A stretch of 52,413 nucleotides of DNA, filler included, from Jimgerdemannia flammicorona (lineage: Eukaryota): NCBI GenBank assembly GCA_003990765.1. It is 2 parts of 2 records of this genome, joined end to end, with 100 filler letters (N's around TTAATTAATTAA, not from the genome) between each part and the next. Parts side by side here need not be neighbours in the genome. Positions count along the whole stretch, not along the records: positions 1 to 26,158 come from RBNJ01000754.1; 1 more part is not named here. One strand, written 5' to 3'. Of the stretch, positions 178 to 28,637 are shown piece by piece; the first letter of the stretch is position 1; the number at the start of each line of letters is the position of its first letter. The notes below the pieces were generated by a model. That model did not search any database. It was not told the origin of the DNA and was given only the letters and a program-made list of their open reading frames with translations. Both the position numbers and the translations under genes were made by a program.

Positions 178-1134
178 ATATATAACATTAATGTTCGAAC
201 ATAGCAGTATCAGGAAATCAGGGCTTGATAATAAAAAGTTGATTGATGAAATCTGGGTCATAAAATACATTTATATGGTTGCTGATATAATGCTTTCAGA
301 AAGTTGCATCTTATTCCTACAGTTTGCGCCCTGTAACTCGACTAATTTGTAATGAACTCCACTCGTTTATCCTCCTATGGAATTTATGAGCTGCTTTCAT
401 AATAATATTGTGCAAGCACATGGCAGAAAGGGCCCATGGATGTAAGATCTCCGAGATTTCGTGGTGACTTGCATGTGCCTGCTGCGGCTTCATCACCCGC
501 CCACATGCTAAATCTAGGCCGATGTGGGTTGCTATAATTGGCTTGGGAGGTAAAGCTCACACGAGCACGAGGAATAAACATTAGGCAGAACATATTTGTA
601 CGGAGAGCATCCAAACCTTCCACGGGGCCGGCCCCGCTGCACGCTCCTAACTATTACGTCAATCCTGTCCAAGGACCAGCTGCATAAGGATCGTCGGTAG
701 GATCGGGTATGTGATGACTGCGTTTGAGGCTGGATACCCTCTTTGCTAGATGGTGGAGGATACCCTTTCGTCACTGTACATACGTCACATCTTTCGAGCG
801 CTTCATTCATTTCCGTTGCTTCCAGTTTCAACCAGGAATACATATTAGAAAAACAAGTTCGATTGCACAAAATCCGGGTCCCAGCTTCGAATTTATATCT
901 ATGCGAAATTACTTTAACGGAGCTTTATTCTTGACAAAAGAATCATGCTCGACTTTCGAAGTTCGTGAAAATGAGCCACAAAACGTGTATAATCCAATAA
1001 TTGTCGTTTATATAAAATAAAATCAGATGAATAATGAACCCAAAAAAGAAAGTGCGCGTGAAGAGCGAATAACTCTAACGACAATAAACAACGACGAAAA
1101 GGGGAATAGAACGAAAAAATACCATGAATACATT

Positions 1135-2579
1135 TTAGAAGCACAACACATCGCACATGTCCACAACCCTTTTAATTGTGATCCTATCACCTTCCCATTT
1201 AATGTTTGCGACACCCGGTGATATGGTCATAAAAATTGTCAGATCTTCTTCCGCCGAGGATAGCGAATCAACATTGTTGTACAGATCGTCCCGAAATTTG
1301 ATAGCACCAAGCTCTTTAATTCCTTCGGCTCGTTCGGTATTGCGGATACTTTGATCGCTTGCGGAACCCGCAAAGAACATCACCATCTCGCCATTTCCCA
1401 TCACCTCCATTTGCAGCTGAGCATGGATGCAGAGATACACTAGTAATCGTATGCTCGACCGAGATTGCCGTACGCTTTTCTCGTTGCCAAATCTAGAAAG
1501 GGTCTCGATTACTGAATCGGTCTTAGCGTCCAAGAACGAGAGCAGATTCTCCCGGATGGTATGCGCGTTGTCCGGCAGATCGGAAAATGGATCGTAGTTA
1601 ACGTCTGCCTGGAATTTATCTTCGACGTTCATTGGCTCGGGGATTTTGTTCAGCAGAAGGCTCGAAAATTCGGATCCCACACGCACCACCAGCATAGCAA
1701 TTTTCGATGACTTGCTCAGCTTCGAATCCAACGCTTGAATCTCATCAAAGATTGTATCGTGTGTGGCGAAGACTTTGTCGGCTGGTCGTAGAGAGATTGG
1801 GTCGTTAAGAAGAACGGTATTCCAGATGGTAGCCAACTGACTACTGATTCCATGCCTAACAACGCGTTTCAGGACGGATTTGCTGGGTTGTGTGCCGGAA
1901 AAGCTGTTCACTCGCTCGTTATACCATTGGTAGATATTTTCGTAACGTAGTGTTTTCTGTTTAATCATGCTCTCAATAATTTTCACTGTCGTCTGAGATA
2001 TCTTCATCAGAATATCTTTGAACGTGACAGGGTTAGCACCATTCATTGCGAAGACCCCGCTGTTGCTGACGGATCCATCTCGATAAAGGCTCCTTTCGAG
2101 TTGAACTTGCTTCTCCAAGTCTATAATCTTCCTCACCATCGTCGTTCCTTGGTTCTTCCTATCTTCAATTTCATTAATATACTTGTCCTTATCATCGCGC
2201 TGGCGCTGAAGTTCATACTTGAGTTCCGCGATTTGCCGTTTTAGCTGTTCAAGCTCCTTATTTTTTCGTTCTAACTCTTCGCGTAGCGTCTCAAGTTCCG
2301 AATGTATCCTTTCCGTGGTGGTCTTGGAATTGTCGGATTGTGTGTTGTTTTCCCGGGGATATACTACACTATTGGTTTGGTGCCCATGATCGCTGGTTGG
2401 CGCCGTGGTGTCACGACTGGCTTGTCGAGGTGATATAAACTTTTTAAGTATCCGCCGAAACTGTGGTGAAGAGTGGTCATCATGAGCGTTAATACGGTTC
2501 GGAGGGTGAACGAAAGCCTATTGATCTTAGCAGCTGGACTTACGTATTGCCATAATGATAATAGGGATGCGCATCGCAT
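1135..2579 (-). CDS. Coiled-coil protein with putative GrpE/Mieap-like C-terminal domain, copy A1 (~453 aa; exons 2579-2544, 2460-1135)
   Basis: The frame of the 334-aa ORF stays open upstream to 2517 and encodes heptad-rich ELETLREELERKNKELEQLKRQIAELKYELQRQ. An 83-nt GTAAG...CCACAG phase-0 intron joins it to the ATG at 2579; the same ATG context (ctactgaaATG) and intron occur in copy A2. The family assignment is inference from the terminal motif pattern. Confidence 0.85.
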
Positions 2580-3686
2580 TTCAGTAGGTTGTAGACGAAA
2601 AATTTTAGACCGCAGTGAGAAACGAGGTCTATGCCAATATGCCAGTAATTATTTGACGAGGTGTCATGCAGGTGTGTTTTGTTGACCAAATTATCTAGGC
2701 GCTTGCTGAAAGGGCCAACAAACATCGGAATTTGGTGGGGACACCGACATAAAAGGCATGTTCACCCATCGGGGCGCGCAAAAAGCACGGCGGGCGGAGT
2801 TGGACCTTGTAATCCCATTGGTGGTCATCTCCAAAAGTTCTGAACCCTCGCCGACATCTCCGACATATGTACACAAGCGAAACCGACAGGGAAAGAGACC
2901 AATGTATTTAGGGAGAGTGCGAAACGTGATGAAGCTGCTAGTTGCGATGTTTGCAAACAGAGCGAAGAGAAAGGAATAGTCGATCTGACAATTTGAAAAA
3001 GAGGTTACACGGCATTTGATTTAAAACCTTTGACAACAAACCGCAGCAGGACCCATGTCAATAGGACTCCATAGAAATTGTGGCTGCAAGCAGGTTTGTG
3101 AAGTTCCAAGCTCTGGTATTCGCAAGACCTGGTTTCGAGGCTCGTGGGCTGGATGACATCGATCGTAAATGCTCTTGTTGGACTCGTTAAATAGAAGGGA
3201 AACAACACATCACCGGTGGAGATGTGATGAACACAAGACAACTGTGCGCTAAGCTAGCTTGGGAGACGTAAACAAATGTGGGAAAGATTATATTGACAAG
3301 GACCAGTGCATACAAATAACCGGCGTTCAGGTCCCTCCCGATTGGGCCCTGAGGCACCAATGTTCCTGATTACATATTTCGCCGATATGTCCTTCGTAAT
3401 GATATATTTTTTAACTTTGACTAGTAGGGATCACCATGGATGGCTTCCGGAAACCCGCACCCGGAACAGGCACATATAATTTGTCCGGAGAAATGTATCC
3501 TCAGGACATCATTCTGTTCCGCACGTCGATGGGCTCACGTACGTAGTAACTATGTTGCGCACAGCACGTCATACTATTGCTTATTTCCTTCAACATCAAA
3601 AAACACCCCCAAGTTGCGATTAAGATAGATCCATTTATCTGTTACGTGCTAAGGCCTCCGTTTGTCATAATCAATCCGACTCCGAC
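2580..3686. promoter_or_regulatory. Putative bidirectional promoter between A1 and B1
   Basis: ~1.1 kb between divergent ATGs (2579 -, 3687 +), alignable with 11079-12012. No specific sites identified. Confidence 0.55.
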
Positions 3687-6600
3687 ATGTCATTCTTTGC
3701 ATCGTCGTCTGGGGCAAATAAAATGCCGGTAAAATTCGATGATAGCCCACGCGCTATCGTCGCGATTGACTTCGGAACCTCTCATTCCGGTTATGCTATG
3801 GTGAGTTTTACTATGGTTGACTTAATCCCGAATCCTTTGTCATTCTACATTATTTGAATATTTCGTATTCTGATCCGAGAATCATCCATCATACTCGCGC
3901 TCACAAATTATTAGATGCATGTCGCAGACACCGATGTCGATGCGCGTTATGACTGGGATGATGCACCTCAGCCATACTGCAAAAATCTCACATCTATTCT
4001 TTACAAGTATGATCCAAGTACCGCAAATCCCTCCGTCGAAAATTGGGGGTACACTGGTACGAGTTGTTTCCATCCTTGATCTCCCCGAAGAAAAAAAATA
4101 AAAATAAAATTACTCACAGACTTTTTGCACATCTCTACCGTCCATGTAATGCTATGCAGCAAAAAAAATAGCAATGAGGAATATCTCCAACGCCAATCAT
4201 CAATACATCGATCGCTTCAAGCTCTATTTGGACGAGAAAGTCACAGATCTGCCAGCACTTCCCGCAGGAAGAACCGCATTGGAAGTGATTGCAGACCTTC
4301 TGCGAAACTTGTACGTCATGATTCTTTCAGACATTGAGGCCAAATGGGGTGGCACAATAGGCGCCGATAACATCATTTGGTTTTTAACCGTACCCGCGAT
4401 GTGGACGGAGAAAGCGAAGCAAGGCATGAGGGAGGCCGCAGCCATGGCGGGGCTGGTAAGCTATTTTATTGCGCGTGACATGGTCTTGAAGGTTTATCAA
4501 GCAGATTCTATATTTAATAATGTATATACATAATACACTCTCATGACCTTCAATGCATTAAGGTTCCGAAACCCTACGAAAACAGCCTCAAGCGACTGAA
4601 AATCGTATTGGAGCCGGAGGCCGCAGCAATGGCATGTTGTCAACAATCGGAACAGTTTTCACTTGTACCTGGAGAAACATTCATGATTGTTGATGCTGGT
4701 GGGGGAACAGTTGATTTGGTGAGAATGGTTTACTATGTTTCTTTAGAATCATGAGTCGAACGAGCCTCTCCTTATTACCAGTTATCCCTCTTCTCTATCA
4801 AAGACTGTCCACGAAATTCTTCACGATCCGAATACCAACATTGAGTCGCTACGGGAGATTTCTCGTGGGCACGGCAAATCGTGTGGATCTACATTTGTTG
4901 ATGAAGAATTTCTCAAATTTTTCAAAGGAAAACTTGGGGCAGATAATGTTGAAAATTTTCGTGCGTCGAACATATCAGCTTGGTTTAAAATAATGAAAGA
5001 GTGGGAAGGTCTCAAGGTATGGGAGCACTTCAAAGTATTTTATTTATATACGCTCGTAGTAAAGGTATAGGGCGATTGGTTGTTTAATTTCAATTTCACT
5101 TATACCGTTTCCCCTCTAACCTCAAACAGTGTAGTTTTAAAGGGAGTGAAGACCAAGAGGAGTATACTATTGAACTTCCATCCATGTTGCGTAAAATCCT
5201 ACCCAGAAAAAAAAAAGATGTCGTCAGCTACGAATCCGGGAATGAAGATGACGAAGATGGCGAAGACGACGACAAAATCACTATAACCGCAGCAGATTTT
5301 CGTAGAATGTTTGATCCAGTTATCAATGACGTGCTAACACTTGTGGAAAGCCAGCTACAAGATGCTTGCCATGCGCTCGATATAGAGCGACAGGAAATTC
5401 TGCCAAGACCAACATCATATCCGTCGGTGCGAGTGTGATTGATAAGATGTTCTTTGTTGGCGGATTCTCGAACAGCCCATACTTGTGGAAAAAAGCCAAA
5501 GAGAAATTCGGTTCCCGTGTAAAACTGTTCCGGCCCAGTGACCCTGGCAGTGCTGTTGTTAAAGGAGCTGCGTGGTGCGGCAGATTTCCACGGTATGTTA
5601 TTGAGTTGCTCATAATTAGCATAAGCTAACATTGAACATTGATTGGCAATCTCATCAGCTGCTAACCCCAAACGTGACATTATTTAAAAAAATAGATTTA
5701 TCAGTAGTCGCCGTAGCCGACTCACTTATGGTATCAAAACCTCCGGGCCTTGGACTCCCGATAACCCAGCTGGGGAATCGGCAAAAATATGGAACGAGGT
5801 TCGTAATTTCTAGGTTCCATATACTTTGGAACTTATATGGCTTATATCATTATGGAAACTTGATATCAGCGCATAAAACGTCAGAGAACTCAAAATAAAC
5901 ATGTATAGCTAATATGATTTAACTTATGATGTGGTATTCCAGGATGAACAGATGGACTATGCAGATAATTTATTCCATGTCATAGTAAACATAAATCAAG
6001 AGGTGGGAATCAAGGAGGTTATTTCAACTCCGTAAGTATATATATACCCTATATAATTTCTGAACTTTGTTTGCTGTGACCCTTCTGATGGCCAGATTTC
6101 TACTCATTTGTGCCGAAACAGGTTTATTCCGGTCAATTCGGATCAAGATTTCGCTGAATTGGAACTATACACAACTGATTTACCGAACGAAACGTACATG
6201 ATCCCTTCCATGAAACTTGGGCCAACGTTAAAGGTGCCACTTACCACAACCGCCATTGAAAATTCGCTCCCTTTGAGAATCCAATTTGTTCAAGATGTGA
6301 GTGGCAGTATGGATGGTGAAAAGCTTCTTGCATGCAAGGACGGGCTTAAAGTAATTAGCCGAAAATTTGCAAACGAAGTCGATGAAGTTGGTCTGATCAA
6401 ATTTGGACCCGCTGTTGAGATCGTCAGGTATTTGCAATATACCGAATGGTTCATGTCATTTGAATTCAATTTTACCAATCTTAATAATGCTCGGCTCTTA
6501 CGTATTTCGATACATTATCAACTAGCGCGATTCAACCGCATTCAACTAACATTGAAAACGAGATCGATAGTCTTTGCGTCGGTGGTATGACCGCTTTGTA

Positions 6601-7078
6601 CGACGGCATCGTTAAAGGAGTCCAAATTCTCAAGGAACGTGAAGAAATCTCCGGGCAGTCAGAAACAAAGAACATCCTTCTGGTCTGCACGGATGGAGCA
6701 GAGAACTACTCCAAAACCAAATTTTCTGAGATCGAAGCTCTGCTCAAAGACCCAGGTATCTCCAACTTCAAAACGATACTTGCCATTGCTGGGGACGTGA
6801 ACACAAACGCTGCGCTCCATCAGCTATGCACTTCGGACGAGTGCAAAGCATATTGCGAAGTCATTCATGTCCGCGATTCCGGAGATGGTATCAAGGAGGC
6901 ATTCAGGGCGATGGATAAAAAAGTGCAGCTGCTCAAATCCCGTCATTTGCTCGAAGGCAAAGCCATCAGGTTAGATATGGAATTTGGGGGAACACATATT
7001 GAGGCAGAGGCCTTCGTTAAGGCATCTGGGGCGAGGAAAACCATTACGATGGATTTTTATGCAAAGAGATCCGAGTAA
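3687..7078 (+). pseudogene. HSPA12-like Hsp70 with inserted VWA domain, copy B1, 1-nt frameshift in exon 6 (pseudogene or sequence error); exons 3687-3800, 3915-4056, 4160-4455, 4563-4718, 4804-5016, 5130-5592, 5696-5798, 5943-6031, 6122-6427, 6526-7078
   Basis: Hsp70 motifs [64 protein letters not shown] motifs DVSGSM, GGMTALYDG, VCTDGAEN; all introns GT-AG. Spliced length 2435 nt is not divisible by 3: CAG-GAAAT-TCT (5391-5401) versus CAG-GGACAA-TCT in B2 leads to TGA at 5436-5438. Confidence 0.85.
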
Positions 7079-9010
7079 TTTGCTTTCGACCTACTGCTCA
7101 TTTCGTTTTGCGCTCGACGGTATTCTGATTCGCATGGTTTTGATACCATTTTTTTTTATTTTGCGGGATAACATAACTCAGGAATTCATTGACATATTAT
7201 TGCTTTGGCCGAAATTAAATAACCACTCAATATTGGTCCTTTGGCAATAAATGTTGAAAGATGTTTGACGGAAATAAATATGGTCATTGTGTTATTGTCG
7301 AAAATTGGCGTCGTTATGACGAACTGATATTATGTTTAAACACATCGAGTGCCTAAATATAATTATTAACGTAGTTCAAATTTCGGCAAGGCCAAGTCAA
7401 TTCAGTTTAGTTTCAATCGCTTCAAGTCAATCTCCTAGCACATAACCTCTTATTTCGTAGCGATTAGTCGTTAGCAATTTCGTATCTACAAGCGGTTTTA
7501 CGCATCCCTCCCGCCCATCCCTCTTGGTCTCGAGGTGTAAAAAAACGACACCTTCGCATATGAACGCGAATGGGGGGCCTTGGTTCCATATAGCCAAACC
7601 CATCGGGTGACATTTGCGACTCGAACTTTACGCGAAGGGGCGTTTTCGCGCGACATTTATTTCTACATTCTATACAACTCAAACTTTTATGCGAAAGGAC
7701 ACTTTGTTGCTAATAAATTTTTTATCCTCGACTTTCTCCAGTATTTTGACAACACCTCAGAGACATAGTATACAGGACACTTTAGTTATGGATGTAGCGT
7801 AGTTTGGGAGCAGATGGGCCTTTGATTATGTTTGGATTAAAATCTGCGAAGATATATTATATACAATGATAACGAATTTGACTATTTTCGGGACGAAAAC
7901 TACACGTTTCGAACCATTAGCACAGTTCGTTCAACCAGATACAAATCAAATCCTGGTATGTTGTCATTAACACAAATATATACTGCATCTCTGTGGCAAT
8001 ATTTGGACATACAGCCTGAGCGTTTTCTCCGAGAATCGCAAGTGCAATTCCGTCAGTTGCGATTAATATTGTGCCACTCGCGAAAGCATTAAATGGGCCC
8101 AAACCATTCCAAACCATCCCTCGACCGCCGTACCCTGTTACTGTTAGTTTCAGATCCAGCTGACGGTCTAACTATCGTCAGTATGTTGTCTCAATTAGAT
8201 ATCAATATATATAATACTCCAGCGCTGTGGTCTGGCTCTTTCTGGGGAAGTATATACGACTACAAGTTCGTTCTCCGGAAATTGGACAGTGCTTGGCTGA
8301 CATCTGATCGGCGAGCATTATAACTAGCTATTCATACTAGCCACTATTTCGTTGGCGATATTCTGTTCGCTTTGGCAAAATCCCTATTTGCTCTACTCTT
8401 TTTTTTTTTTTTTTTTCCAGCACTTATGCCCATGCCTGTGTGGAAGTAACAATGGTTTTTGCATCGCACTTCAACTAAGACGCCACAGCAGTATCAGGAA
8501 ATCAGGGCTTGATAATAATAAAGTTAATTGATGAAATCTGGGTCGTAAAATAAATTTATAAGGTTGCTGATATAATGCTTTCAGAAAGTTGCTTCGCAAT
8601 TATATCTTATTCTTACGGTTTGCGCCGTGTAACTCGACTAATTTGTAAATGAACTCTACTCCTATAGAATTTATGCTCGTATCGAGTTGCTTTCATAATA
8701 ATATTGTGCAAGCACATGGCAGGAAGGGTCCATAGATGTAAGATCTCCGAGATTCGTGGGCGACTTGCATGTGCCTGCTGCGGCGTCATCACTGCTATAA
8801 TTGGCTTGGGAGGTAAAGCTCACACGAGCACGCGGAATAAACATTAGGCAGAACATATTCGCCAAAACCATGTATATACGGAAAGCACCACCTGAGCATC
8901 CAAAACCGATACTCTATATCTTCCACGGGGTCGCTGCCTGCGCCTAACTATTACGTCAAGGACCTGCCAAATTCTAGGTTTGAGGAAATTTTATGACCGT
9001 TCGGTATTCC

Positions 9011-9150
9011 ATGCTAGATAGGAACGAATAGTGGAGGATATCTCTTATACTAGATAGGAACAAATGGTGGAGGATACTCTTATGCTAGATAGGAACGAAC
9101 GGTGGAGGATACTCTCTTATACTGGATAGGAACGAATGGTGGAGGATACC
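9011..9150. repeat. Minisatellite, 4 copies of a ~35-nt unit (consensus ~TGCTAGATAGGAACGAATGGTGGAGGATACTCTCTTA)
   Basis: Four adjacent imperfect copies with no spacers; unit 1 has only one shortened copy at ~743-770. Confidence 0.9.
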
Positions 9151-9564
9151 CTTTGCTACTGTACATACGTCACTTTTTTCGAGCGCTTCATTCATCCCCG
9201 TTGCTTCTGGTTCCCCCATAGACCGAGGAACACCAAAGGGCCGGTACTCTCCTCCCAACCAGGAATACATATTGGAAAAACATGTTCGATTGCGTAAAAT
9301 CCCAGTCCCAGTTTTGAATTTATATATATATATATGCGAAATTACGTTAACGGGGCTTTTTTTTCTTGACAAATCGACTTTCGAAGTTCTTGAGAATGAT
9401 GGGAACTGAGCACGGCAGAGCCCATTCAAAAATTGTCGTCTATATATAAAATAAAATTAGATGAATAAAAACCCAAAAGTAGTGCACATGAAGAGCGATA
9501 ACTCTAGCAATAATAAACGACTACGAAAAAGGGGAACGAATGAAAAAAATACCATGTATATATT

Positions 9565-11078
9565 TTAGAAGCACAACACATCGCATTTGTTCTCAATCTG
9601 ATCACCAATTGTGACCCTATCACCTTCCCATTTGATGTTCGCGACGCCCGGTGAGATGGTCATACAAACTGTCAGATCTTCTTCCGCCGAGGATAGCGAA
9701 TCAACTATGTTGTATAGATCGTTCCGAAATCTAATGGCATCAAGCTCTTTAACTCCTTCGGTTCGTTCGACGTTCCGGATACTTTGATCGCTTGCGGTAC
9801 CCGCAAAGAACACCACCATCTCGCCATTTCCCATCACCTCCATTTGCAGCCGAGCATGGATGCAGAGATACACCAGGAATCGTACGCTCGACCGAGATTG
9901 CCGTACGCTTTCCTCGTTGCCAAATATAGCAAGGGTCTCGGTTACTGAATCGGTCTTAGCATCCAAGAACGAGAGCAGATCCTTCCGGATGTTAAACGTT
10001 TTGTATGACAGATCGGAAAACGGATCGTATTTGACGGCTGCATGGAATTTATTTTCGACGTTCATTGGCTCGGGGATTTTCTTCAGTAGAAGGCTTGCAA
10101 ATTCGGATCCCACACGCGCCACCAGCATAGCAATCTTCGATGACTTGCTCGGCTTTAAGTCCAACGCTTGAATCTCATCAAAGATTGTATCGTGTGTGAC
10201 GAAGACTTTGTCGGCTGGTCGTAGAGTGATTGGGTCGTTAAGAAGAACGGTATTCCAGATGGTAGCCAACTGACTGCTGATTCCATGCTGAACAACGCGT
10301 TTCAGGACGGATTTTTTAAGTCGTGTGTTCTCAGAGTTGGAAAAGCTGTTCACTCGCTCGTTATACCATTTGTTGATATTTTCGTAACGTAGTCCCTTCT
10401 GTTCACTCATGCCCTCGATAATTTTCACCCTTATCAGAGATATCTTCTTCCAAGTCTTTGCGAACCTCTCAGGGTTAGCACCATCCATTACGAACAGCCC
10501 GCTCTTTTGTTCGCTGACGTATCCATCTTGAGTTGGTGGGCAAAGGCTCCTTTCGAGTTGAATTTTCTTCTCCAAGTCTCCCATCCTCCCCGCCATCGCC
10601 GTTTTTTCTTTAGTATACTTGTCCTTCTGACGCTGAAGTTCGTTCGTGAGGTCCGCGACTTTCCGTTCCCATGCTTTAACCGTGTCTTTTAGCTGTTCAT
10701 GAAACTTCTCCTGGTGTTCGAGTTCATCCTTGTGTTTGATATTGGTTTGTTCTAACTCTTCGCGTAGTGTCTCAAGTTCCGAATTCAACTTTTCCACGGT
10801 AGTCTTGAGATCGTCGGACCGTGTGTTGTTTTCCCAGTGATGTAGAACTTCCAGCTCGGTGCCCACAGTTGCACTATTAGTTTGGTGCCCATTATCACTA
10901 GTTGGCACCGCGGTGTAACGATTGTCTTGTCGTGGTACGGATTTCTTAAGTACCCGCAGAATCTGCGGTGAAGAGTGGTCATCATAAGCGTTAATACGGT
11001 TCAGAGGGTGAACGAAGGCCTATTGATCTTGGCGGTTGGACTTACGTTTTGACATAATTGGGATGTGGAAGGTGGCAT
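9565..11078 (-). CDS. Coiled-coil protein with putative GrpE/Mieap-like C-terminal domain, copy A2 (~476 aa; exons 11078-11046, 10962-9565)
   Basis: The 447-aa ORF frame is open upstream to 11019. Exon 1 MPPSTSQLCQN joins through an 83-nt GTAAG...CCGCAG phase-0 intron. Long N-terminal heptad region; clear paralogue of A1. Confidence 0.85.
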
Positions 11079-12012
11079 TTCAGTAGGCTGTAGACGTTAT
11101 TCCTCCGAAATTTTTTAGATCGCAGTGAGAAACGGCGTTTTGTTGTCAATTTAAGACCAAAGTATCTGGGTGCTTGCTGAAAAGGTCAACAAACATCGGG
11201 ACACCGACATAAAAGGCATGGTTACTCATCGGGGCACGCAAAGAGCACGGCGGGCAGAGTCGGACCACAACCCTCGTGATCACCGATCCCGATTCATCCA
11301 AAAGCGGTTTCCTCATGCATCAAATCTCTGAACCCTCGCTGATATCTCCAACATATTTACACGTTTGATAGTGGTTTATTGGGATATCGCAGCAAGCGAA
11401 CCCGACAGGGAAAGTGACCGATGTATATATATAGGGAGAAAGAGGTTACACAGGATTTGATCTAACTTAAAACATTTGACAACAGGCCGCAGCACCCCAA
11501 GTTTCGGGGGAGAACTCATGTCAATAGACTCCATGGAAATTGTGGTTTTGCGAAGCTCTAGGCTCTAGTATTCACAAGGCCTGGTTTCGAGGCTCGTGAG
11601 CTGAGTGACATCGATCGTAAATGCTGGACTCACTGAAATGAAGGGAAAAAACACATTGCCGGTGAAGATGTGAACACAAAGCAACTGTGCGCTAAGCTAG
11701 CTTGGGAAACGTAAATAAATGTGGGAAAGATTAAGTAAACGGCGTTCAGGTCCCTCCCGATTGAGCCAGCGTTCCTGATTACATATTTCGCTGATATGTC
11801 CGTCGTAATGATAGGGATCGCCACGGATGGCCCGCATGCACATATAATTTGTCCGGAGAAATTTATCATCGACTTGAGGTCTCTGTTCCGCACGTCGACG
11901 AACTCACGTACGTAGTACCTATGTTGCGCACAGCACTTATTTCCTTCAAGATAAATCCATCAATCTGTTAAGTGCAAAAGCCTCCGTTTTTCAGAATCAA
12001 TCCGACTCCAAC
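11079..12012. promoter_or_regulatory. Putative bidirectional promoter between A2 and B2
   Basis: ~0.93 kb between divergent ATGs; homologous to 2580-3686. Confidence 0.55.
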
Positions 12013-15000
12013 ATGTCGCCCTTTGCATCGTCATCTGGAGCAAATGAAATGCTGTCAGAATTCGATGATAACACACGTGTTATCGTTGCTATTGACTTCG
12101 GAACCTCCCATTCCGGTTATGCTATGGTGAGTATTACTATGGGTGACTTAATACCGAATCCTTTGTCGTTCTACATTATTTGAATATTTCGTCTTCTGAT
12201 CCGAGAACCATCCATCATACTCGCGCCCACAAATTATTAGATGCATGTCGACGACACTTCGGCCGCTGTCGAAGCGCAATATCGGTGGAAGAATCAACCT
12301 CAACCATACTGCAAAAATCTCACATCCATCCTCTACAAGTATGATTCAAGTACAGCGAATCCCTCCGTCGAAAATTGGGGATACACTGGTACGAGTTGGT
12401 TCCATCCTTGCCCTCCTCCCCAAAAGAAAATGACTCATAAACGTTTGCACATGTCTACCGTTCATGTAATGCTATACAGCACGGAATTTGGCGATCGGAA
12501 AAAAATTAAAAGAACGACAATATATCGATCGCTTCAAACTCTATTTGGATGAGGATATCGCAAACCTACCGGCACTTCCCACAGGAAGAACCGCATTGGA
12601 AGTGATTGCAGATCTTCTACGAAACTTACATGTTATGATTCTCTCAGAAATCGAGGGCAAATGGGGTGGCATGGTGGGGGCCGATAACATCGTTTGGTTT
12701 TTAACCGTACCCGCGATGTGGACGGAGAAAGCGAAGCAAAGCATGAGGGAGGCCGCAATCATGGCGGGGCTGGTAAGTTATTTATTGCGCCTGTGTAGCG
12801 TAACCATGGTTTTGAATATGTAACTGGCATGTTATATAATTACATAATGTACATAATACACTCCATGTCCTTCAATGCATCAAGGTTCCGGAAAATGAAA
12901 ACAACCTTAGGCGACTGAAAATTGTTTTAGAACCGGAGGCCGCAGCAATGACATGTTGTCAACAATCGCAACAGTTTTCGCTTGTACCTGGAGAAACATT
13001 CATGGTTGTTGATGCTGGTGGCGGAACAATTGATTTGGTGAGAATAATTTATTATGTTTCCTTAGAATTATGAGTCGAACGAGCCTCTCCTTATTATCGG
13101 TTATCCTTTTTCACTATAAAGACTGTTCACGAAATTCTTCACGATCCGAACACCAACACTGAGTCGCTACGGGAGATTTCTTGTGGGCACGGAAAATCGT
13201 GTGGATCTACATTTGTCGATGAAGAATTTCTCAAATTTTTCAAAGAAAAGCTTGGGGGAGATATTATTGACAGTTTTCGCGCATCACACGGGGCACCTTG
13301 GTTAGAAATAATGAACGCGTGGGAAGTTCTCAAGGTATGAGAGGACATTCAAAGGCCTTTATTTACGCTCGTGATAAAGGTATCGGGTGATTGATCATTT
13401 AACTTTGCACCGTTTTTCTCTAACATCAAACAGTGTGGTTTTGACGGAAATGAAAATGCAAAAGAGTATATTCAACTTCCATATAAGTTGCGCCAAATCC
13501 TAGTCAGAAACAACACAGATGTCTTCAACAACTACGATTCCGATAGTGATGAAGAGGAATTCGACAAAGTTACTATAACAGCATCAGATTTTTGTAGAAT
13601 CTTCGATCCAGTCATCAATAACGTGATAACACTAGTTGAAAAACAGCTACAAAGAGGTTGTCATACGCTTGATATAGAGCGACAGGGACAATCTGCCAAG
13701 ACCAACATATCCGTCGGCGCATGTGTGATTGATAAGATGTTTTTTGTTGGTGGATTCTCGAACAGCCCATATTTGTGGAAAAAAGCCAAAGAGAAATTCG
13801 AGTCCCGTGTAAAAATGTTCCGGCCCAGTGACCCTGGCAGTGCTATTGTTAAAGGAGCCGTGTTGTGTGGCAGATTTCCACGGTATGTGATTGAGTTACT
13901 CATAATTTAGTTAACATCGATTATTAATCTCGTCATCTCCTAACCCAAAACACGACATTAATTAAACAAATAGTTTCATCAGTAGTCGCCGTAGCCGACT
14001 CACTTATGGTGTCAAAACCTCCGGGCCTTGGACTCCTGATAATCCGGCTGGGGAATCTGTAAAAGTATGGAACGAGGTTCGTAATTTCTAGGTTCCATAT
14101 ACTTTGGAACTTACAGGGCATATACATAACATATCTTTATGGCAACTTGATGTCAGTGCATAAAAATCCAGAGAGCTCAAAATGAACATGCATAGCTAAT
14201 ATGATTTAACTTATGTCGCGGTATTCCAGGATGAGCAGATGGACTACGCAGATAATTTATTTCATATCATAGTAAATGTAAATCAAGAGGTGGGAATCAG
14301 GGATGTTATTTCAACCCCGTAAGTATTTATATTATTCTTGAACTTTGTTTGCTGTGACTCTTCTGATGGTCGGATTTCTACTCATTTGTGTTGAAACAGG
14401 TTTATTCCGGTCAGTTCGGATCAAGATTTTGCTGAATTGGAACTATACACAACTGATTTATCGAACCAAAAGTACGTGATCCCTTCCATGAAACTCGGGG
14501 CAACGTTAAAGGTGCCACTTACCACAACCGCCATTGAAAATTCGCTCCCTTTGAGAATACAATTTGTTCAAGATGTGAGTGGCAGTATGGATGGTGAAAA
14601 GCTTCTTGCATGCAAGGATGGACTTAAAGCAATCTGCCGCAAATTGGCAAACGAAGCCGATGAAGTTGGTTTGATCAAATTTGGGTCCGCTGTTGAGATC
14701 GTCAGGTATTTGCAATATTCCGAATGGTTCATGCCATTTCAATTACAATTTTACCAATCTTAATAATGCTCGGCTCTTACGTATTTCGATACATTATCAA
14801 CTAGCGCTATTCAACCGCTTTCAACTAACATTGAAAACGAGATCGATAGTCTTCGTGTCGGTGGTATGACCTCTTTGCACGACGGCATCGTTAAAGGACT
14901 CCAAATGCTCAAGAAACGTGAAGAAATCTCCGGGCAGTCAGAAACAAAGAGCATCCTTTTCGTTTGCACGGATGGAGAAGAGAACAGCTCCAAAACCAAA

Positions 15001-15357
15001 TTTTCTGAGATCGAAGCTCTGCTCAAAGACTCAAGTATCTCCAACTTCAAAATGATGTTTGCCTTTGCTGGGAACACGAACACAAACGCTGCACTATATC
15101 AGCTATGCACTTCGGACGAGTGCAAAGCTTATTGCGAAGTTGTTCGTGTCCACGATTCCGGAGATGGTATCAAGGAAGCATACAAGGCGATGGACAAAAA
15201 AGTGCAGCTGCTCAAATCCGGCCATTCGCTCGAAGACAAAGCCATTAGGTTGGATATGAAATTTGGGGGAACGCATATTACAGCCGAGGCTTTCGTTGAG
15301 GCATCTGGGGCGAGGGAAACGGTTACGGTGGATTTTTATTCGAAGACATACACATGA
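12013..15357 (+). CDS. HSPA12-like atypical Hsp70 with inserted VWA domain, copy B2, intact (~806 aa); exons 12013-12126, 12241-12388, 12480-12772, 12885-13037, 13122-13334, 13434-13882, 13974-14076, 14230-14318, 14400-14705, 14805-15357
   Basis: Nine GT-AG introns give a 2421-nt open frame. Actin-fold ATPase motifs [46 protein letters not shown] / GGMT / CTDG; HSPA12-type tail [32 protein letters not shown]. Confidence 0.92.
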
Positions 15358-18300
15358 TCTGCATGTAAAATATTTTTCGATCTACTGTTCCATGTTTTTG
15401 AAACCATTTTCTATTTTGCGGATGACGTGACTGTCTATATTGCTTCAACCGAAATTAAATAACCGCTCATAACTTATTCAGTATTGGTCCTTGACATTAA
15501 GTGTTGAAAGATGGTTGACGGAAATAAATATGATCATTCGAAAATTGGATTGTCATGACGAACTGATATTATGTTTAAATACATCGAGTGCCTGACTACC
15601 AATAAAAATTTTATCCTCGACTTTCTCACAACACGTCAGAGACATAATATACAGAACACTTCAGTTATGGATGTAACGTAGTTTGAGATAGTGACTATAT
15701 TTGAATTAAAGTCTTCGAAGATATATTATATACAGTTTGACTATTATCGGGATGTGTTGTACGAAAACGGCACGTTTTGAACCATTAGTACAGTTCGTTC
15801 AATCCGACACAAATCAAATCCTGGTATGCTGTTATTAACGTGGCAATATTTGGGCATACAGCCTGAGCATGACCTGCGAGCATCAATGTCAAGGGTAACT
15901 CTGTCAGTTGCGACTAATATTGTATCAACTCACGAAACGCATTAAATGGGTGCCATAGACCTTCGGCCGTGAACTACCCTTTCCAACCTCGACGTTCTGC
16001 ACGTGACTCGCTATCACCCATGAAATATTGTCTTGAGCAAATTTTCTGTATGAAACCGGACGGAAATTACAAGGGAACGCTGCTGCGCGTGATAATTAAA
16101 GATCCCTCCGACGTTCAAAATGGCGGAAACGCGCCTTCGAAACGTTCCAAATCAAAGTGGCTTATATTCCCGCTTTTCGGAAATTTCCTGAGGTTTCCTT
16201 TGTGGGTGTTTGCCTTTGACGATTCCATTTTTGGCATTCTACGCTACGCTTTTGCAGAAATTATTGACAAGAGTTCTAGCTGCGAGATGTGCGGCCAAAG
16301 CCCATTTACGATAACAACGACGGCGAAGAATGATTTTGCTGCACTCCCTTCCGGCAGTGTGAACTTTAAATTCGGGATTTCTAGTTGGGTAAACCTAACC
16401 CATTGGTCCATCTCCCTGCGGCCAAGCGGTCGATCCTCCTGAGAACAATATTACCCCCCTTCCCATGCTTAAACAAGTTTCGAGTCATGCAAATCAAATC
16501 GGGCGCGAGATCCACAATCGCCGCTATCACAAGCGTCGCATGCTACCCCTTCGCGAACTCGGAACGTGAGCGAATCATCGCCGGCTTGTTTCGTATTTCA
16601 GACAATAAGTCAAGGAGTTGGTGCATTGGCGGCTCCCCAAATTGTTGGCGTCATTATGCATTGTCGCCACGCGCGTCCATTGGCTTCGAGTTTCATTTGT
16701 GGGTCTCACATCATAGTTTTTTGAATAGGCATCATGGGGCCTCGATCTGGCGTCTTTCCCAATCGTTCTTTCCCTTTTCCGTCTCGCTAAACATTTCCAC
16801 TGGAAAAGGGCAGGTCCCCCCTTTTTTTTTTCTTTTTTTTCTTTTTTTTTTTTTTCGGGGTGCGTGAATAGATTTGGGATTGGGGGATTGGGCAGAGATG
16901 AAAGCAAGGGGCAGCATAGGCCCTCTTTGGGCATTAGCCATTCCCTCACTAGACATCTTGCCTCCTCGAGGAAGACCGCCGTGGGTCCCGAGGCGATTTG
17001 GCAACGAAGCCCATTGCGCAATTTAATTGCGCTGCAAAGATCCCCAATTGCCGAATTTCCCACCAGAGACGGTTTTCATGTGCTTGCTGCGGCCTTATCG
17101 TCATCGGCGGAGTGCCTGGGTTGAAAAGTGCGTTTCATATATGTCAAGCTTTTTTTTTTTCCTTTCTACCTCGCTAAATACATGTTCTCCGATGCCTTGT
17201 GGCCAGTTCGACGAGGCTCAGACCCGTGCTCCGGAAGCGGCTCTCCGCTCGGAATACAGTCACAAAATGGGCAGCTGACCCGGAAATTGCCCGCCCATTC
17301 CGAGCTGGTCCGATTGGCCGATGGGCGTCCATCACGTCTCGGGATACCGGATTGGGTGTGGCACGAGATTAAGACCGGGGCTGGAACGGTTGGTTTGAGG
17401 AAGGCGCTATTATGTCTTGAGCTTAAGGCAAGGCGACGCCAAGGAGTTGACTCACCGGCGGGAAGACTGTCCGGAGGAGTTCTCGCACGTGTGCGGGAGG
17501 CGTTTTTTTTTTTTTCTTCTTCTTAGCGCTGAAGTCTTGGCGCAAGGAAAAAACAAATCACGTCTACAGGCCATGGTAGAGGGCTGAAAGGCGTTCTGTA
17601 CACAATACAAGTCACGGTCTAACTGTCACGCCTGTGTGGGCGCCCTTACGCTCATTGTGTGTGTCTCCTCTGACACCCACTAACAGTTCCAGGCCGTCTC
17701 ACACGACCCAACATGACATGACATGTTTTTTCCTGGACTTCATTCCCATTATAGCCAGTCAATATTTGTCCACGTACACAAAACACAAATGTAGCGCCTC
17801 TTATCAAAGTCACAGAAAAGAATAAACTATAAAAAGGAAAAGACCAGAAAACATCTGACCCCGCTATTTCGTTAACCCCAAACCCAAAACGTAACATAAA
17901 CTATAGGCTTCCCGACCCCAGTCCCGCGGAGATTGCCTCGATTGATAGTTGTCGTAGATCGTACCCATTGGGCTGATCGCCAGGGGGTAAGGGGGTAGAG
18001 TTCATCCGATTTCGGTCACGGAGAAATGAAACCTACCAGGTTTAGGAGGGTTCAGATCGTTCCCAAAATCGGTCCTAATCCGCGAAGCAGCCCGATAGCT
18101 CTTTGACGGAGCCGTCCGAAATGGACAAAGCGGCAAATACGCCGTGGAAGCTTCCCATCTGCTTTCCCAATTCGTTCCCTAAGACCACGATTGCGAGGAG
18201 CTTAGCAACTTCGTGAATGAAACCCAGCCTTGATTTGTCGCCTTGCAGATCTGCTCGATCGATGGTCCGTGCGCAGTGCTCCCGCCAGGAAGTGTCGCCT

Positions 18301-19272: not shown

Positions 19273-20099
19273 CCTCGTAAATCGTCGGTGATATAAATTA
19301 TGAGTAACATCTTTTTGTGATACATATATATATTTTGTGGTATAATTACGAGTACGTCTTTATATGGTGACATCTCATATAGTGACATCAATCTTTCCCT
19401 TGGATTAGATATGCTTCGCGAAAAAAAATATCCTTTTATAAAACTCATTATACAAAAGGAAAGCCTCTCTCATATCCTCCTATTTCTGCTTTCGCCCTTT
19501 CGCAACCTTTCTATTGAATTATTCACTGTCCCTATTCACCTCGCAAACATTCTTGTGATAGCTGTATGATCATAATTTAGCCCCTCATGGTTCTTCTCAA
19601 TTTCGTCCTCCCAAACTCTCAACCGTATTTTTTACGTACGGAGCCAACTGAGGCCAATGAAAAAGGAGTTACTAGTGCTTCCACCATCGGAAACTCTGTG
19701 GTGTTGATGGTGATAAAGTAATTGCCGTTCGGCTCTATGCTTTCCCAGGATAAATATCTTTCGTCAGATTGCAGCAATCTATTATTTCGTCCAACGATGA
19801 CAAGAACGATCCTAAATATCAGATGTACTATTTTTATGTTGGATCAGGATTCCAGGATCCTTAATAATACTCGCAAACGATCTGACATACCAAACAACCT
19901 TGCTGTCCCACGGAAGGAGGACAAGTCACGATATACCCCAGAAGCATTCTGAGGCAATAAATTTCAGATACTCACGTGTAAGACTGATGGAGGAAAAACT
20001 CAATAGGAATCATTAGATTTGTGTGTGGGCTCCTGAGGCATATCTGATACTGAATTGATAATAAATTATATCTCTTCAGAAATACTCATAGAAGTACTC

Positions 20100-21720
20100 T
20101 GCTAAGTATCAATAATGAACTCTAAACATTTGTAAGATAAAAAAATTTCAATATTTATATCTATATATTAAATATCTGTTATATTGGATCTTATTAAGTT
20201 TTATTAGTAACTGTCATACTAGTTCCTACACAGTATTTATTAAGAAACCTTAGATGATAATACTATTAAAAGTAATAGAGATAACTTATTAATATAAACT
20301 TTGTAATATAGTATATAAGTAGTAGTATTAATAATATATATCTCTTAATCTGTTATATATCTGAATTGGATTGTAAAAATAAAATTTCAAAATAAAAATA
20401 AAAAGATCAAAAATATTAAATAGAAATCAAAAAATTAAATTGCTAAAAAATTTACTTTTATTTTTTTTAAATATATTATAATTTTTTTTTTTTATAATTT
20501 TATAATAAATATTAAGTCAAAAAAAAAAAATTAAAATTAAAATTAAAAAATTAAAAAAAAATTTACAGCCAAATTTAGCTATAAAATGCATATGGAACAA
20601 ATTTAATAAAGCTTAAACTATAAAGTTTGATAACTTATCTCATAAGTTTAGACAAAATAACTAATATATAGTTAATATTAAAACTAAATTATTTGTCATT
20701 TTAAATATATCCCTTTGACTGTAGATAAGATTGTCTTTTAAAATTATTTAGCAGATAAATTAAAGTTTGAAAAAAATGATTTTTTGAAACATTGTTTTTC
20801 TGTTAAAAATATATCTCAATTTGTTTAAAAACAATTTTTTTTTTTTTTATAAAATTTTTACCAAAGATAGAATTATTATATAAAAAATTATTGGTAAATT
20901 TTTTTTTAAAAAGCTATTATGATTTTAAAAGTTATAAACTTTTAAAATCTTGCCTCTAAATATAGGTGCAAAACAGTCAAAGGAATATGTATTTTTATTT
21001 TTTATTACTAGAAATTTATATAATAAATATATATTCTATCTAAAAATTTCTTTTTTATAATTTAAATTTATTATTATTATTTATTATTCATATTATCTAT
21101 CTATATATCAAAGTTTATTTCTAATATTATATTATTATAATTCAGTTTTATTGAGTTAACAAATATGATAATAGTTTATTTGCTTAAATAAATATTATGT
21201 AAGTTAGTATTTATATAAAATAATAATATAAATATAAAAAATTAATAGTAGATATAATATATTTATAATTTATTTTAGTCTAAGTATTTCTAAATAGTTC
21301 TGATAATTAGAAAAGATAAAAAAAAAAAAGAATATTATAATTTTAAAACTTTAAAGCAAATTACTTTATTTAAGTTTAAGTTATTGAGATATATAATAAT
21401 TTAATTAAGTAATTTTATATTTTAAACATAACTATTATTAATAATAAATTTATTTAAATTATTTTTAGAATATTATTAATTATTAATTATTAAACCATTT
21501 CAGTATATATATATATTTTTTTTAAAAAAAAAATTAATAAACGTAAACTAAAACATAAATATATTATAATTTTATAATTTACTTATAAAAAATTAATTTT
21601 TAATTTTTATTTTATTTTTATAGTCAACTTTATACTGTATGCCCATTTAAATACAAATTAACTAAGGGGTTTATATATATATTAATATTCATATCTATTT
21701 TTATGTCTTTTTATTAAAGG
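20100..21720. other. Extremely AT-rich non-coding block, probably a heavily C-to-T-decayed repeat
   Basis: No ORF >60 aa, almost no CpG, long A/T runs, abrupt return to normal GC at ~21725. Origin from a decayed TE is inference. Confidence 0.7.
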
Positions 21721-22068
21721 TTTAGTAGACAGTAATGAAAAGGAATGTGGATCGTACAGAGGAGGCGGAGATTTCACTTACATACCACGCTGTGTCCTTC
21801 CTAACTCTCATAGAAGCGTTGGCTCAAATTTTCGAAAAGGGCGGGACCGTGCTGACGATGGCTTGGTTGGTGTTCAAGCACTGCAAGTCAGATGTATTCG
21901 GCCACGTAGGCATGAAACTGCGCAGCTGCACGATGGAAGTGATGGCGGTGATGTCATGGCAACTAATGCAGTCCCGTCACGTGGGTGTGAGCAGCCCCCT
22001 TTTTCTACTTCATCTGATAACGAACACACGAACCACAGTGAATATCCCCCTACCTCCTCAACCCTACC

Positions 22069-24292
22069 ATGTCCTTCCGCCATCCCGAAAACGCCCACAC
22101 CGACCGCCTTAACATCGCCCACAAACGTATCGGCTCCGTCGACCTGCCTCACCGTCTCTTTAGCCAACAGAAACGACGCAAATTTGCCGACACGCCGCAA
22201 AGTAACGGCAGAGTGTGGCACGAAGAAGGAGACTATCACCACACCAACGCGCCCGCTTTTCTACCCTCTCCTGCTGATGTGATAAAGGAGAATGATAGGT
22301 TGGAGTCTGAGCTGAGAGAGTTCATAAGTGCCGGAAACAACTTCTACCACAACGCCACGCCAAGCGACCCACCTTTCCCCTCCTCCTCCATTGGCACCGG
22401 TATCCATCTGCCATCGGCCACTGGAATGCAGAGGATGGGCGGAATGGGGTCTGAATCGAAAGAAATTACGCGAACCGGATCCAATTTGCACCATGACGAT
22501 AGACGTATCCACCCGCCCTCACCGTTCCCGGCTTTGCCTTGCAGCGACTCACCTTCGCCGCAAGCACATGACACAATATGGCCCGAACTTAGAGAACCCA
22601 CAAAAGCCAGTCACGGCTACTGGCGTAAAACCCTTCCTTCGCTCTCCTCACGCTCGCCGTCTCCGGTGTCGAAGTATCGTGATGAGGCCCGCGAGTCTTA
22701 CCATGGCGACATGTTCACCCGCTTGCCGTCACTTACTCGCTCAATTTCCCCCCGCTCCGCATCCTTGACGCCGCCTCTGCATTACAGTAGTGAAACCGCG
22801 CATGTCCCCCACGGCAACACGCATTTAAACTACCCCTACGGAGGCGTGCTCACACACCGGCCCTTGCTCCCAATCGCTAACTTCTCACACACCGCGCCGG
22901 ACTTGCACAGTGGCGGCGTGCAATCGGCCTCTGGCCCAACCTCCACATCGTTTCAATCAGCATCTGACTTGTACAACGACGACAGGCTCACCGAACTTCC
23001 TTTGCTGGCCCCGCCAAACGTTACCCGCGCCGCGCCCGACTGCTACCCTAGTGACATGCACACGGGTGACCTACCTCCTTCCTTCCTACATCCGACATTT
23101 TTAAAAGTGACATGCTTACCTTGTCTCTCTCAAACTTCTTCCTCATTCAGATATCTCCCATGGTGAAAGGCCTTCCCTAGCCGTCTTCAACCCTTCACAC
23201 ATGGCACCGGACTTCAATCGTGGACACACGTACCCGACGTTCGACTCACCCTCTCCCCACGTCGCAGCCGATTTCTACAAAACAGATATGCGCCCGGTCT
23301 TCACTCTCACGCCTCCCCACGTCGCATCCGGCTTCAAAAAATTAGACATGCTCACTCTCTATCCCTCGCTCCCACCCTCGGACTTTACCTACACTGTACC
23401 CGATTTATATAAGAGCACTGCACAATCGCTTCCACCACACACCTTCTCTAACCCCGCACCGAACATTCACCAACGCGACACGACCGACCTCTCCTCCTCC
23501 GCTTCATCCGGGTCCTACCAAAGCGACACGCTCACCCACCAACCGCCTACTAATCACTCCCACACATCATCGAGCTTCCAGCCCGTCAACACCGAACTAC
23601 TACCTCACCACGGCCTCATCTGGCTCCCTCCAAACGCCTACCTCCGCGGCCCGCAACCCCAGCCCCCCACCTCCCGACCAACACCAAAGATTCTCTGCAT
23701 TGATCTGACGTCCTCCCCTTCGCTCTCCCCCAGAGCGTCGGTTGACATGGATGAAGTTGTTCAGGATCCGGTAACATTTGACGCAAGTTCGAGGCCGACA
23801 TACGGAATCTCATCCTCCAGAGCTTTGTCTTTCGAACCTCCATTGCACGTATCTCCTTCTCCCGCCATCACCCTCGGCCGCCCCACCGGCCACGCTCGCG
23901 GCTCGCGCAACCTCCCCAGGCACGCGACGAACACACTGAAGGATTGGCTTGTTATCCACAAGCATCACCCATACCCGATGGATTGGGAGAAGGAAGGGTT
24001 GGCGCGCTCGACAGGGCTCTCCGTGAACCAGGTCGATCAGTGGTTCATCAATGCTAGGAGAAGGTATCTAGAGGTTGAGAAAGGAGAGGGAATGGGCAGC
24101 GAGGAAGTGGAGGTGGATGAGTTGGGGAGTGAGTGTGAGAGTGAGAGTGGAGGTAGAGAGGTAGATAGTGCGATAGAAGAGAAGGAGAAGGAAGAGAAGG
24201 GAAAAGAGAAGGAGAAAGCAGAGAAGGAAAAAGTGGAGGAGAAGGGGAAAGAGGAGAAGGAGATAGAGGAAAAAGACGATAAGGAAGAGTAA
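22069..24292 (+). CDS. TALE-class (KN/TGIF/Cup9-like) homeodomain transcription factor, with a frame break at ~23050-23200 (intron or frameshifts)
   Basis: Homeodomain RNLPRHATNTLKDWLVIHKHHPYPMDWEKEGLARSTGLSVNQVDQWFINARRRYL (~23906-24070) with the PYP loop and WFINARRR. Two consecutive Pro/Ser-rich ORFs (22069-23166, 23201-24292) in different frames share an internal repeat; Glu/Lys-rich tail. Confidence 0.8.
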
Positions 24293-26158: not shown

Positions 26159-26258
26159 NNNNNNNNNNNNNNNNNNNNNNNNNNNNNNNNNNNNNNNNNN
26201 NNTTAATTAATTAANNNNNNNNNNNNNNNNNNNNNNNNNNNNNNNNNNNNNNNNNNNN
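26159..26258. other. Synthetic gap/contig spacer (44 N + TTAATTAATTAA + 44 N)
   Basis: Exactly 100 nt; the central palindromic 12-mer puts TAA in all six frames, a linker design. Confidence 0.95.
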
Positions 26259-28527: not shown

Positions 28528-28637
28528 TTCTTCTTAAGAACCAATGTTCTTATTAATTCTTAGGTAATATAAGACTAAATATACTTAACCAAAATTTCTA
28601 AAACTTATATTGGTATATTGATAAGAACTAGCCATCC

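Follow-up and report, generated by a model that had tools for sequence, protein, structure and literature searches.

The stretch of DNA considered here (the window, 52,413 nucleotides including filler, joined from parts of two records of the Jimgerdemannia flammicorona genome assembly GCA_003990765.1) carries, close to one end, a tandem segmental duplication of a head-to-head, co-transcribed gene pair in an Endogonales fungus. One member of the pair, called A here, is a 10-exon gene on the plus strand; the other, B, is a 2-exon gene on the minus strand. They are divergently oriented, and their start codons are separated by 1107 nt in copy 1 and by 934 nt in copy 2. The duplication has a period of approximately 8.3 kb, and self-BLAST recovers it as 17 collinear same-strand matches, the largest of which (3622-7067 against 11948-15346) is 85.4% identical over 3483 columns; the second largest (829-2146 against 9256-10603) is 84.2% identical over 1367 columns, and both have E = 0. 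Identity between the copies lies at 80-91%, with 98.5% in one 67-base piece. Broken down by region, it is flat at 86-88% in the coding sequence, the introns of A, the 5' untranslated region (UTR) of B, the core intergenic region and the flanks, the exceptions being two short stretches, one of 83 bases at 92% and one of 33 bases at 91%. The other 36 kb of the window contain no additional copy resembling A or B.

All four genes (A1, A2, B1 and B2) are transcribed and spliced. Exon borders were taken from the alignment of the two copies and then compared with the contigs of X1, the one public run containing this stretch; its label, "RNA?", is a guess, and it was treated as RNA because its contigs lack introns. 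All nine introns of A and the intron of B occupy homologous GT..AG positions in the two copies. For A1, a single 2593-nt contig extending over 3654-7184 skips nine of nine GT..AG introns at the predicted places, and for B1 a 1250-nt contig over 1813-3146 skips the only intron in the coding sequence. The contigs of B2 skip the corresponding intron (joint 10962>11046), and low-depth contigs of A2 skip two introns (joints 12387>12479 and 14074>14228). Contig depth, a poor measure of expression, is 63 for A1 and approximately 32-44 for B1, against approximately 10 for B2 and 1-3 for A2. The preliminary description of the locus had held that the pair was copied as one unit with its exon structure kept, and the self-BLAST matches, the spliced contigs and the shared intron positions all agree with it. 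The positions of the genes and their features are collected in Table 1.

Table 1. Features of the duplicated gene pair, with positions along the whole window
Feature	Position	Strand	Evidence or remark
Copy 1 (B1, shared intergenic region, A1)	200-8097	.	17 BLAST matches to copy 2
Copy 2 (B2, intergenic region, A2)	8484-15950	.	Self-BLAST and per-region identity
A1 coding sequence	3687-7078	+	10 exons, 811 aa with the extra A of the RNA; spliced contig and translation
A1 exons 1-5	3687-3800, 3915-4056, 4160-4455, 4563-4718, 4804-5016	+	
A1 exons 6-10	5130-5592, 5696-5798, 5943-6031, 6122-6427, 6526-7078	+	
A2 coding sequence	12013-15357	+	10 exons, 806 aa, intact frame
A2 exons 1-5	12013-12126, 12241-12388, 12480-12772, 12885-13037, 13122-13334	+	
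A2 exons 6-10	13434-13882, 13974-14076, 14230-14318, 14400-14705, 14805-15357	+	
Putative phosphate-1 motif, actin-fold/Hsp70 ATPase domain, A1	3762-3791 (A2 12088-12117)	+	Direct reading
TVPAMW...AKQGMREAA block, A1	4387-4440 (A2 12704-12757)	+	Aligned by phmmer to DnaK ITVPAYF...AG
Predicted phosphate-2 motif DAGGGTVD, A1	4692-4715 (A2 13011-13034)	+	Aligned to DnaK DLGGGTFD
A-run, one base short in A1 of the window	5395-5397 (AAA; ggaaatt)	+	X1 contig has one A inserted behind 5394
Predicted adenosine-binding motif, A1	5450-5485 (A2 13740-13775)	+	Aligned to DnaK LVGGQTRMP
Predicted vWA core with MIDAS residues, A1	6294-6706 (DVSGS 6294-6317, GGMT 6581-6598, CTDG 6686-6706)	+	
Predicted MIDAS residues, A2	DVSGS 14572-14595, GGMT 14860-14877, CTDG 14965-14985	+	
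B1 coding sequence	Exon 2 1135-2460; intron 2461-2543; exon 1 coding part 2544-2579	-	453 aa
B2 coding sequence	Exon 2 9565-10962; intron 10963-11045; exon 1 coding part 11046-11078	-	476 aa
Predicted coiled coil, B1	2080-2340	-	AlphaFold2 helices 41-104 and 107-127 of exon 2; coiled-coil structural matches
Conserved C-terminal domain, B1, ~310 aa, mostly helical	1138-2070	-	Hallmark of the Endogonales family
C-terminal tail, B1, 83 aa	1138-1386 (B2 9568-9819)	-	Weak likeness to the GrpE C-terminal domain
B2 3'-UTR intron	9440-9552	-	12 nt past the stop; joint 9439>9553, CT..AC on the plus strand
B1 5' UTR	2580-3146	-	At least 567 nt; contig up to 3146, first in-frame ATG at 2579
Core shared intergenic region, candidate bidirectional promoter	3147-3653	.	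At most 507 nt; B1 contig ends at 3146, A1 contig begins at 3654

The core intergenic region of copy 1 is 86.8% identical to that of copy 2. Matches to the heat-shock-element consensus number 22 in the window, against 20.6 expected, and none falls in either intergenic region. The 5' UTR of B1 is unusually long, taking up over half of the space that separates the A1 and B1 start codons. For B2, the public protein model (P0002, 538 aa) departs from the frame at ...DQIENK and goes on for approximately 60 unrelated residues, while the X1 contig retains the stop at ...CDVLCF and removes the 3'-UTR intron instead; the C-terminus of P0002 is probably a mis-annotation.

Some repeats lie at or near the edges of the copies. 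A dispersed repeat (1-182, 92% identical to 38171-38355 over 185 columns by self-BLAST) abuts the left edge of copy 1, and a tandem repeat with a 35-37-base unit and approximately four copies lies downstream of B2 at 9011-9161; its counterpart in copy 1 aligns by self-BLAST in patches only.

Gene A is, judging by its sequence, an atypical Hsp70 ATPase that keeps the motifs of the nucleotide-binding domain (NBD) and carries, in place of the canonical lid, a domain of the von Willebrand factor A (vWA) type with a complete metal ion-dependent adhesion site (MIDAS); an Hsp70-VWA protein was also what the preliminary description had proposed. The spliced A2 protein matches Escherichia coli DnaK at E 2.6e-8 (18.3 bits; phmmer, Z = 1 with a single target) in two collinear stretches, residues 160-276 with DnaK 138-240 and residues 401-474 with DnaK 329-405. 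The match spans TVPA..AG, EP.AAA, D.GGGT.D and VGG (FFVGG) and reaches the first strand past the interdomain linker. The putative phosphate-1 motif and the connect/E, phosphate-2 and adenosine motifs are collinear and alignable to a bona fide Hsp70, which places A in the Hsp70 superfamily. No single exon of A matched the Pfam HSP70 model at E <= 0.1; the domain is split over eight exons.

A region of approximately 100 residues separates the ATPase domain from the vWA domain that forms the C-terminus. The Pfam VWA_2 model (PF13519) matches the open reading frame (ORF) of exon 9 at E 2.4e-4 and 22.1 bits, under the 27-bit cut-off; exon 9 holds only the first half of the domain, and the exon-10 ORF has no Pfam vWA match. 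The MIDAS pattern DxSxS...T...D can be read directly in both A1 and A2, complete and in the expected order and spacing. When single exons of A were searched against PDB sequences, the weak best row for one was a vWA protein (E 0.91); rows for a dUTPase, for SspH2 repeats and for a septin in the same searches were taken as chance. The A1 and A2 proteins are identical at 640 of 804 aligned residues (79.6%).

That the ATPase domain is HSPA12-like is a lead, given by a language-model look-alike: the nearest Atlas cluster to exon 3, which holds the TVPAMW block, is named "Heat shock 70 kDa protein 12B family" (0.93, 166 of 256 features, with no E-value attached). Like animal HSPA12A and HSPA12B, A carries a TVPAxW...AKQxMRxAA block, which we take to be an HSPA12 signature, and it differs from them in its C-terminal vWA/MIDAS domain. 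We know of no partner protein described for HSPA12, and to our knowledge neither a mechanism, nor a co-chaperone, nor a defined biochemical cycle is known for HSPA12-type Hsp70s. In the titles and abstracts among the matches listed for the HSPA12 and Jimgerdemannia literature, there is no HSPA12-vWA fusion, no HSPA12 exchange factor and no mention of this locus.

Gene A appears to be missing from the public annotation of the species, while the neighbouring B genes are annotated. Exon 10 of A and exon 6 of A2, searched against 5.8 billion proteins, returned nothing at E <= 0.001, not even A itself, so that these searches give no information on paralogues or relatives of A. A metagenome scan with patterns from A found none, and neither did scans of prokaryote genomes, in which a strict back-translated TVPA[IM]W...AKQxMRxAA likewise had no match.

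In the window, A1 is one base short at an A-run, and its frame meets a stop 14 codons on; the extra A of the X1 contig restores the 811-residue frame. The likeliest cause of this 1-nt frameshift is an assembly error in the homopolymer or a difference between strains. It could instead be real, in which case copy 1 would be decaying and a full-length ATPase would come from copy 2 only. The window sequence taken at its face does say as much, but the spliced A1 contig, the deepest on the locus, reads through the site, the six exon indels between A1 and A2 other than the A-run itself all have lengths divisible by three, and the frame of A stayed open by chance in none of 5000 simulations. Decay of copy 1 is highly improbable.

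Gene B encodes a protein with a disordered N-terminus, a coiled coil of approximately 90 residues, a helical domain of approximately 200 residues and a short C-terminal tail. B1 and B2 are identical at 319 of 441 aligned residues (72.3%); B1 is 98% identical to the J. flammicorona hypothetical protein P0001, P0002, of the same species, agrees with the main exon of B2, and these are the only two proteins returned by a word-index search. An exhaustive phmmer search with the last 311 residues against 1.84 billion representatives gave nine proteins at E <= 0.001, seven of them at E <= 1e-10: P0001, four more from J. flammicorona, one from Endogone sp. FLAS-F59071 and one unnamed fragment of 253 aa. 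The two weakest matches (E approximately 1e-4), repeat proteins of a bryozoan and of a Clostridium relative, are regarded as chance. Common to all the real relatives is a coiled coil that varies and is often repetitive, and after it a conserved domain of approximately 310 aa that ends in C-x-V. By these searches the family is narrow, with relatives only in Endogonales plus the one unnamed fragment. A metagenome scan with patterns from an alignment of six of the eight family sequences had no match.

The coiled coil anticipated in the preliminary description is present and long, as indicated by Pfam coiled-coil families, the only ones to match the B family and all below their cut-offs, by the helices of AlphaFold2 models and by structural matches to coiled coils at Z 6-7. 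From eight-row alignments, the full protein was modelled at a predicted local distance difference test (pLDDT) score of 64.6 and the C-terminal domain at a pLDDT of 67.5 with a predicted template modelling score of 0.73. The models consist of a long helix, a helical core of good confidence and a tail that includes a beta hairpin and is poorly modelled. VIA-align gave best Z scores of 7.1 (coiled coil only) and 6.3, within the noise of the tool for helical models, and its top rows are generic helices. A profile of the whole C-terminal domain against PDB sequences returned 33 rows at E 0.07-10, mostly coiled-coil proteins and none of them GrpE. The nearest Atlas clusters to the C-terminal domain are unnamed Ascomycota proteins (0.91-0.93); MIEAP and GIL1_IRKI_C, at 0.77-0.82 in the Atlas only and with no Pfam support, were set aside.

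The weak resemblance of B to GrpE, the other half of the earlier proposal, lies in the tail. The tail was tested alone because the stretch chosen by hhalign paired V.L.SDLH.AV with FDPxxHxA, the most conserved block of GrpE. Against E. coli GrpE by itself, the tail reached an hhalign probability of 1.1% (P 0.047), and against an 11-sequence profile (E. coli GrpE with ten diverse GrpEs from plasmid-collection records) a probability of 18-20% (P 0.0011-0.0013). The match, of 33 columns or, at low stringency, 53, pairs residues 27-59 of the tail with GrpE 145-178; it falls at the very C-terminal end of each protein and spans the FDPxxHxA...GY block. All 300 column-shuffled tails scored below the observed 24.7 (null mean 9.9, standard deviation 2.1, maximum 20.1), and the reversed tail scored 12.4. 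When GrpEs were taken singly, with 81 E. coli ORFs of at least 170 aa as decoys (mean score 11.6, maximum 20.1), five of the 11 matched in the same register with scores of 24.9, 21.0, 20.2, 18.7 and 16.2, equal to or above 79 to 81 of the 81 decoys.

The two genes appear to evolve differently. For A, the ratio of nonsynonymous to synonymous divergence (dN/dS) between the copies is 0.42 (dN 0.116, dS 0.273; K0 0.111, K4 0.253, intron K 0.171), which fits moderate constraint. For B the ratio is 0.88, close to neutral (K0 0.161, and K4 0.129 on only 138 four-fold sites). In windows of 60 codons it varies between 0.25 and 1.10 in A and between 0.37 and 1.71 in B, in keeping with the patchy protein divergence described earlier for both genes. 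Each of the 11 indels that separate B1 from B2 has a length divisible by three, and in simulations with the same 187 substitutions placed at random the frame of B stayed free of stops in only 7 of 5000, which together indicate that the frame has been maintained; the indels in the introns of A are of arbitrary lengths. The pattern in B fits a mix of constraint and fast change, and with two sequences relaxed and diversifying selection cannot be told apart.

The single most likely reading of the locus, held at somewhat less than an even chance, is that A and B form a dedicated ATPase-cofactor pair. B would dimerise through its coiled coil and serve as the dedicated cofactor of A, acting through its tail as a GrpE-like nucleotide-exchange factor or else as an adaptor. 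By way of its MIDAS site, A would dock on an acidic residue of a client, which it would hold or remodel by means of its ATP cycle. It may be that the two genes, sharing one regulatory region of at most approximately 0.5 kb, were duplicated and have diverged as a pair for that reason. The known system closest to such an arrangement is DnaK-GrpE (PF00012 and PF01025), in which, as here, an Hsp70-type ATPase gene stands beside one for a protein made up of a long helix or coiled coil on the N-terminal side, then a helical part and then a C-terminal domain of small size, and with whose FDPxxHxA...GY block the tail of B aligns weakly. A differs from DnaK in having a vWA domain and no canonical lid, no J-protein was seen in the duplicated unit, and instead of an operon A and B are intron-containing eukaryotic genes in divergent orientation.

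A number of results weigh against this reading. The Pfam GrpE model matches none of the eight members of the B family at E <= 10 (and neither full B1 nor B2 at E <= 0.1), the profile of the whole C-terminal domain reaches an hhalign probability of only 0.3% with E. coli GrpE, and a HMMER profile of the tail finds nothing among PDB sequences at E <= 10. Six of the 11 single GrpEs do no better than decoys, and a Mann-Whitney comparison of GrpEs with decoys gives p = 0.048 when made on scores and p = 0.010 when made on P-values. The tail is modelled at a pLDDT mostly below 50, and the helical domain of B, at approximately 200 aa, is about four times larger than the short bundle of GrpE. Foldseek has no match to either B model at E <= 0.001, and no GrpE chain is listed by Foldseek or VIA-align, a missing match that does not exclude the fold. 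Identity between the copies is as high outside the coding sequence as within it, which may mean that constraint is weak on both copies. Compact fungal genomes contain many divergently oriented neighbours, and a segmental duplication of any kind will carry neighbours along together. Taken with the tail match, these results leave the preliminary claim of a GrpE-like B weakly supported: Pfam and the fold searches do not bear it out, and the tail profile does lend it something. The signal between tail and GrpE is real but weak and falls short of establishing homology, and it moves the GrpE reading from unlikely to roughly an even chance.

Nearly as likely as a dedicated pair is that A and B are unrelated neighbours that share an intergenic region and were passengers on one duplication, with B a fast-drifting, lineage-specific coiled-coil protein that does separate work, for instance as a scaffold or tether, and has a likeness to GrpE arising from a chance beta-hairpin pattern. 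Divergent orientation, shared promoter space, co-transcription in one run and joint duplication do not distinguish a module from neighbours. The restriction of the relatives of B to Endogonales and one unnamed fragment, the lack of any matching known family or fold, a dN/dS in B of approximately 0.9-1.25 and the flat identity speak for unrelated neighbours. So does the presence of at least four further B-type clusters in J. flammicorona, set against no A-type protein among 5.8 billion in two exon searches, although those searches missed A itself and are silent on paralogues. It is harder to reconcile with incidental neighbours that the tail match beats 300 of 300 shuffles and most real decoys and is C-terminal in both proteins, that the partner is an Hsp70-type ATPase, exactly the class served by GrpE-like proteins, and that the frame of B has stayed open against expectation.

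The pair might also be a conflict or non-self-recognition module, in which A would be an ATP-driven switch with a ligand-sensing vWA domain, B a diversifying effector, decoy or guarded target, and duplication of the pair a source of new specificities. Windows of B with dN/dS of 1.35-1.71 in the coiled coil and 1.58 in one window of the C-terminal domain, with the frame kept, point in this direction, as do the paralogues confined to the lineage, whose coiled coils vary and are repetitive; relaxed constraint, however, often raises dN/dS in coiled coils, and two copies are too few for a site-wise test of positive selection. Such a near-neutral rate with a kept frame is compatible with a role in immunity and does not show one. 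Head-to-head pairs of nucleotide-binding leucine-rich repeat (NLR) genes are familiar from plants, among them RPS4/RRS1, RGA4/RGA5 and Pik-1/Pik-2. A and B resemble them in divergent orientation, in a short shared intergenic region and in duplication as a pair, but have no NB-ARC, LRR or integrated decoy domain, and the likeness is in gene arrangement only. Pfam scans of the exon ORFs of A and of the B-family members found no NB-ARC, NACHT, LRR, TIR, HET or death-fold domain, none of the nuclease- or pore-type effector domains, and none of the WD40, ANK or TPR repeats that accompany NB-ARC or NACHT in paired NLRs. The sensor/executor analogy drawn in the preliminary description is not supported, and an immunity role for the pair is unsupported.

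Prokaryotes offer further parallels to such a module. MoxR-type AAA+ ATPases work in couples with vWA proteins, as in RavA-ViaA, CbbQ-CbbO and NorQ-NorD. In these couples and in the NTPase-vWA conflict systems of PMC7159879, as in A, an NTPase goes together with a MIDAS-type vWA domain that would dock on a target; A, however, is of the actin-fold Hsp70 type, not AAA+, and is fused to its vWA domain in one chain. As described in PMC11090510, type III CoCoNuT systems encode together proteins with Hsp70-like NBD and substrate-binding domains, extensive coiled coils and MIDAS-bearing TerY-type vWA proteins. This co-occurrence in prokaryotic defence operons would favour a conflict module, but these are McrBC-derived restriction operons with HEPN nucleases, parts that have no counterpart here, and the resemblance is a thematic parallel only. 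All told, a conflict module seems quite improbable.

The idea of a dedicated pair could be carried further: HSPA12-type Hsp70s in bacteria, amoebae and this fungus might have exchange factors to themselves, fast-evolving coiled-coil proteins derived from GrpE whose genes lie next to theirs, and the fungal ATPase might clamp its clients by its MIDAS vWA domain, making a self-contained two-gene remodelling or defence switch that duplicates and diversifies as cognate pairs. In this general form the proposal is rather unlikely. What the locus does offer is a concrete candidate partner beside a transcribed, HSPA12-like ATPase with a vWA domain in place of the lid, two diverged cognate pairs that provide a built-in control for specificity, and, in A, a gene that is itself new to annotation. 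Should the pairing be incidental, what remains is a segmental duplication of the ordinary kind, with an unusual fusion gene and an orphan gene on it.

Elsewhere in the window, an open frame at 23111-24292 on the plus strand, approximately 8 kb downstream of the duplication, encodes a TALE-class homeobox protein (Homeobox_KN E 4.6e-16, Homeodomain E 2e-5). Retroelement fragments on the minus strand at 40562-41020 and 43488-44039 (RVT_1 E 1.6e-8 and gag-type aspartyl protease E 6.3e-9) and an inverted repeat pair of 368 bases at 83% identity by self-BLAST (43623-43990 and 47547-47914) look like the remains of a decayed long terminal repeat retrotransposon. Two runs of N lie near 26158-26258. Base composition is uneven beyond the duplication, with a GC content of 0.198 at 20001-22000 and a GC skew of -0.34 at 22001-24000, +0.34 to +0.46 at 28001-34000 and approximately +0.5 at 48001-52000.

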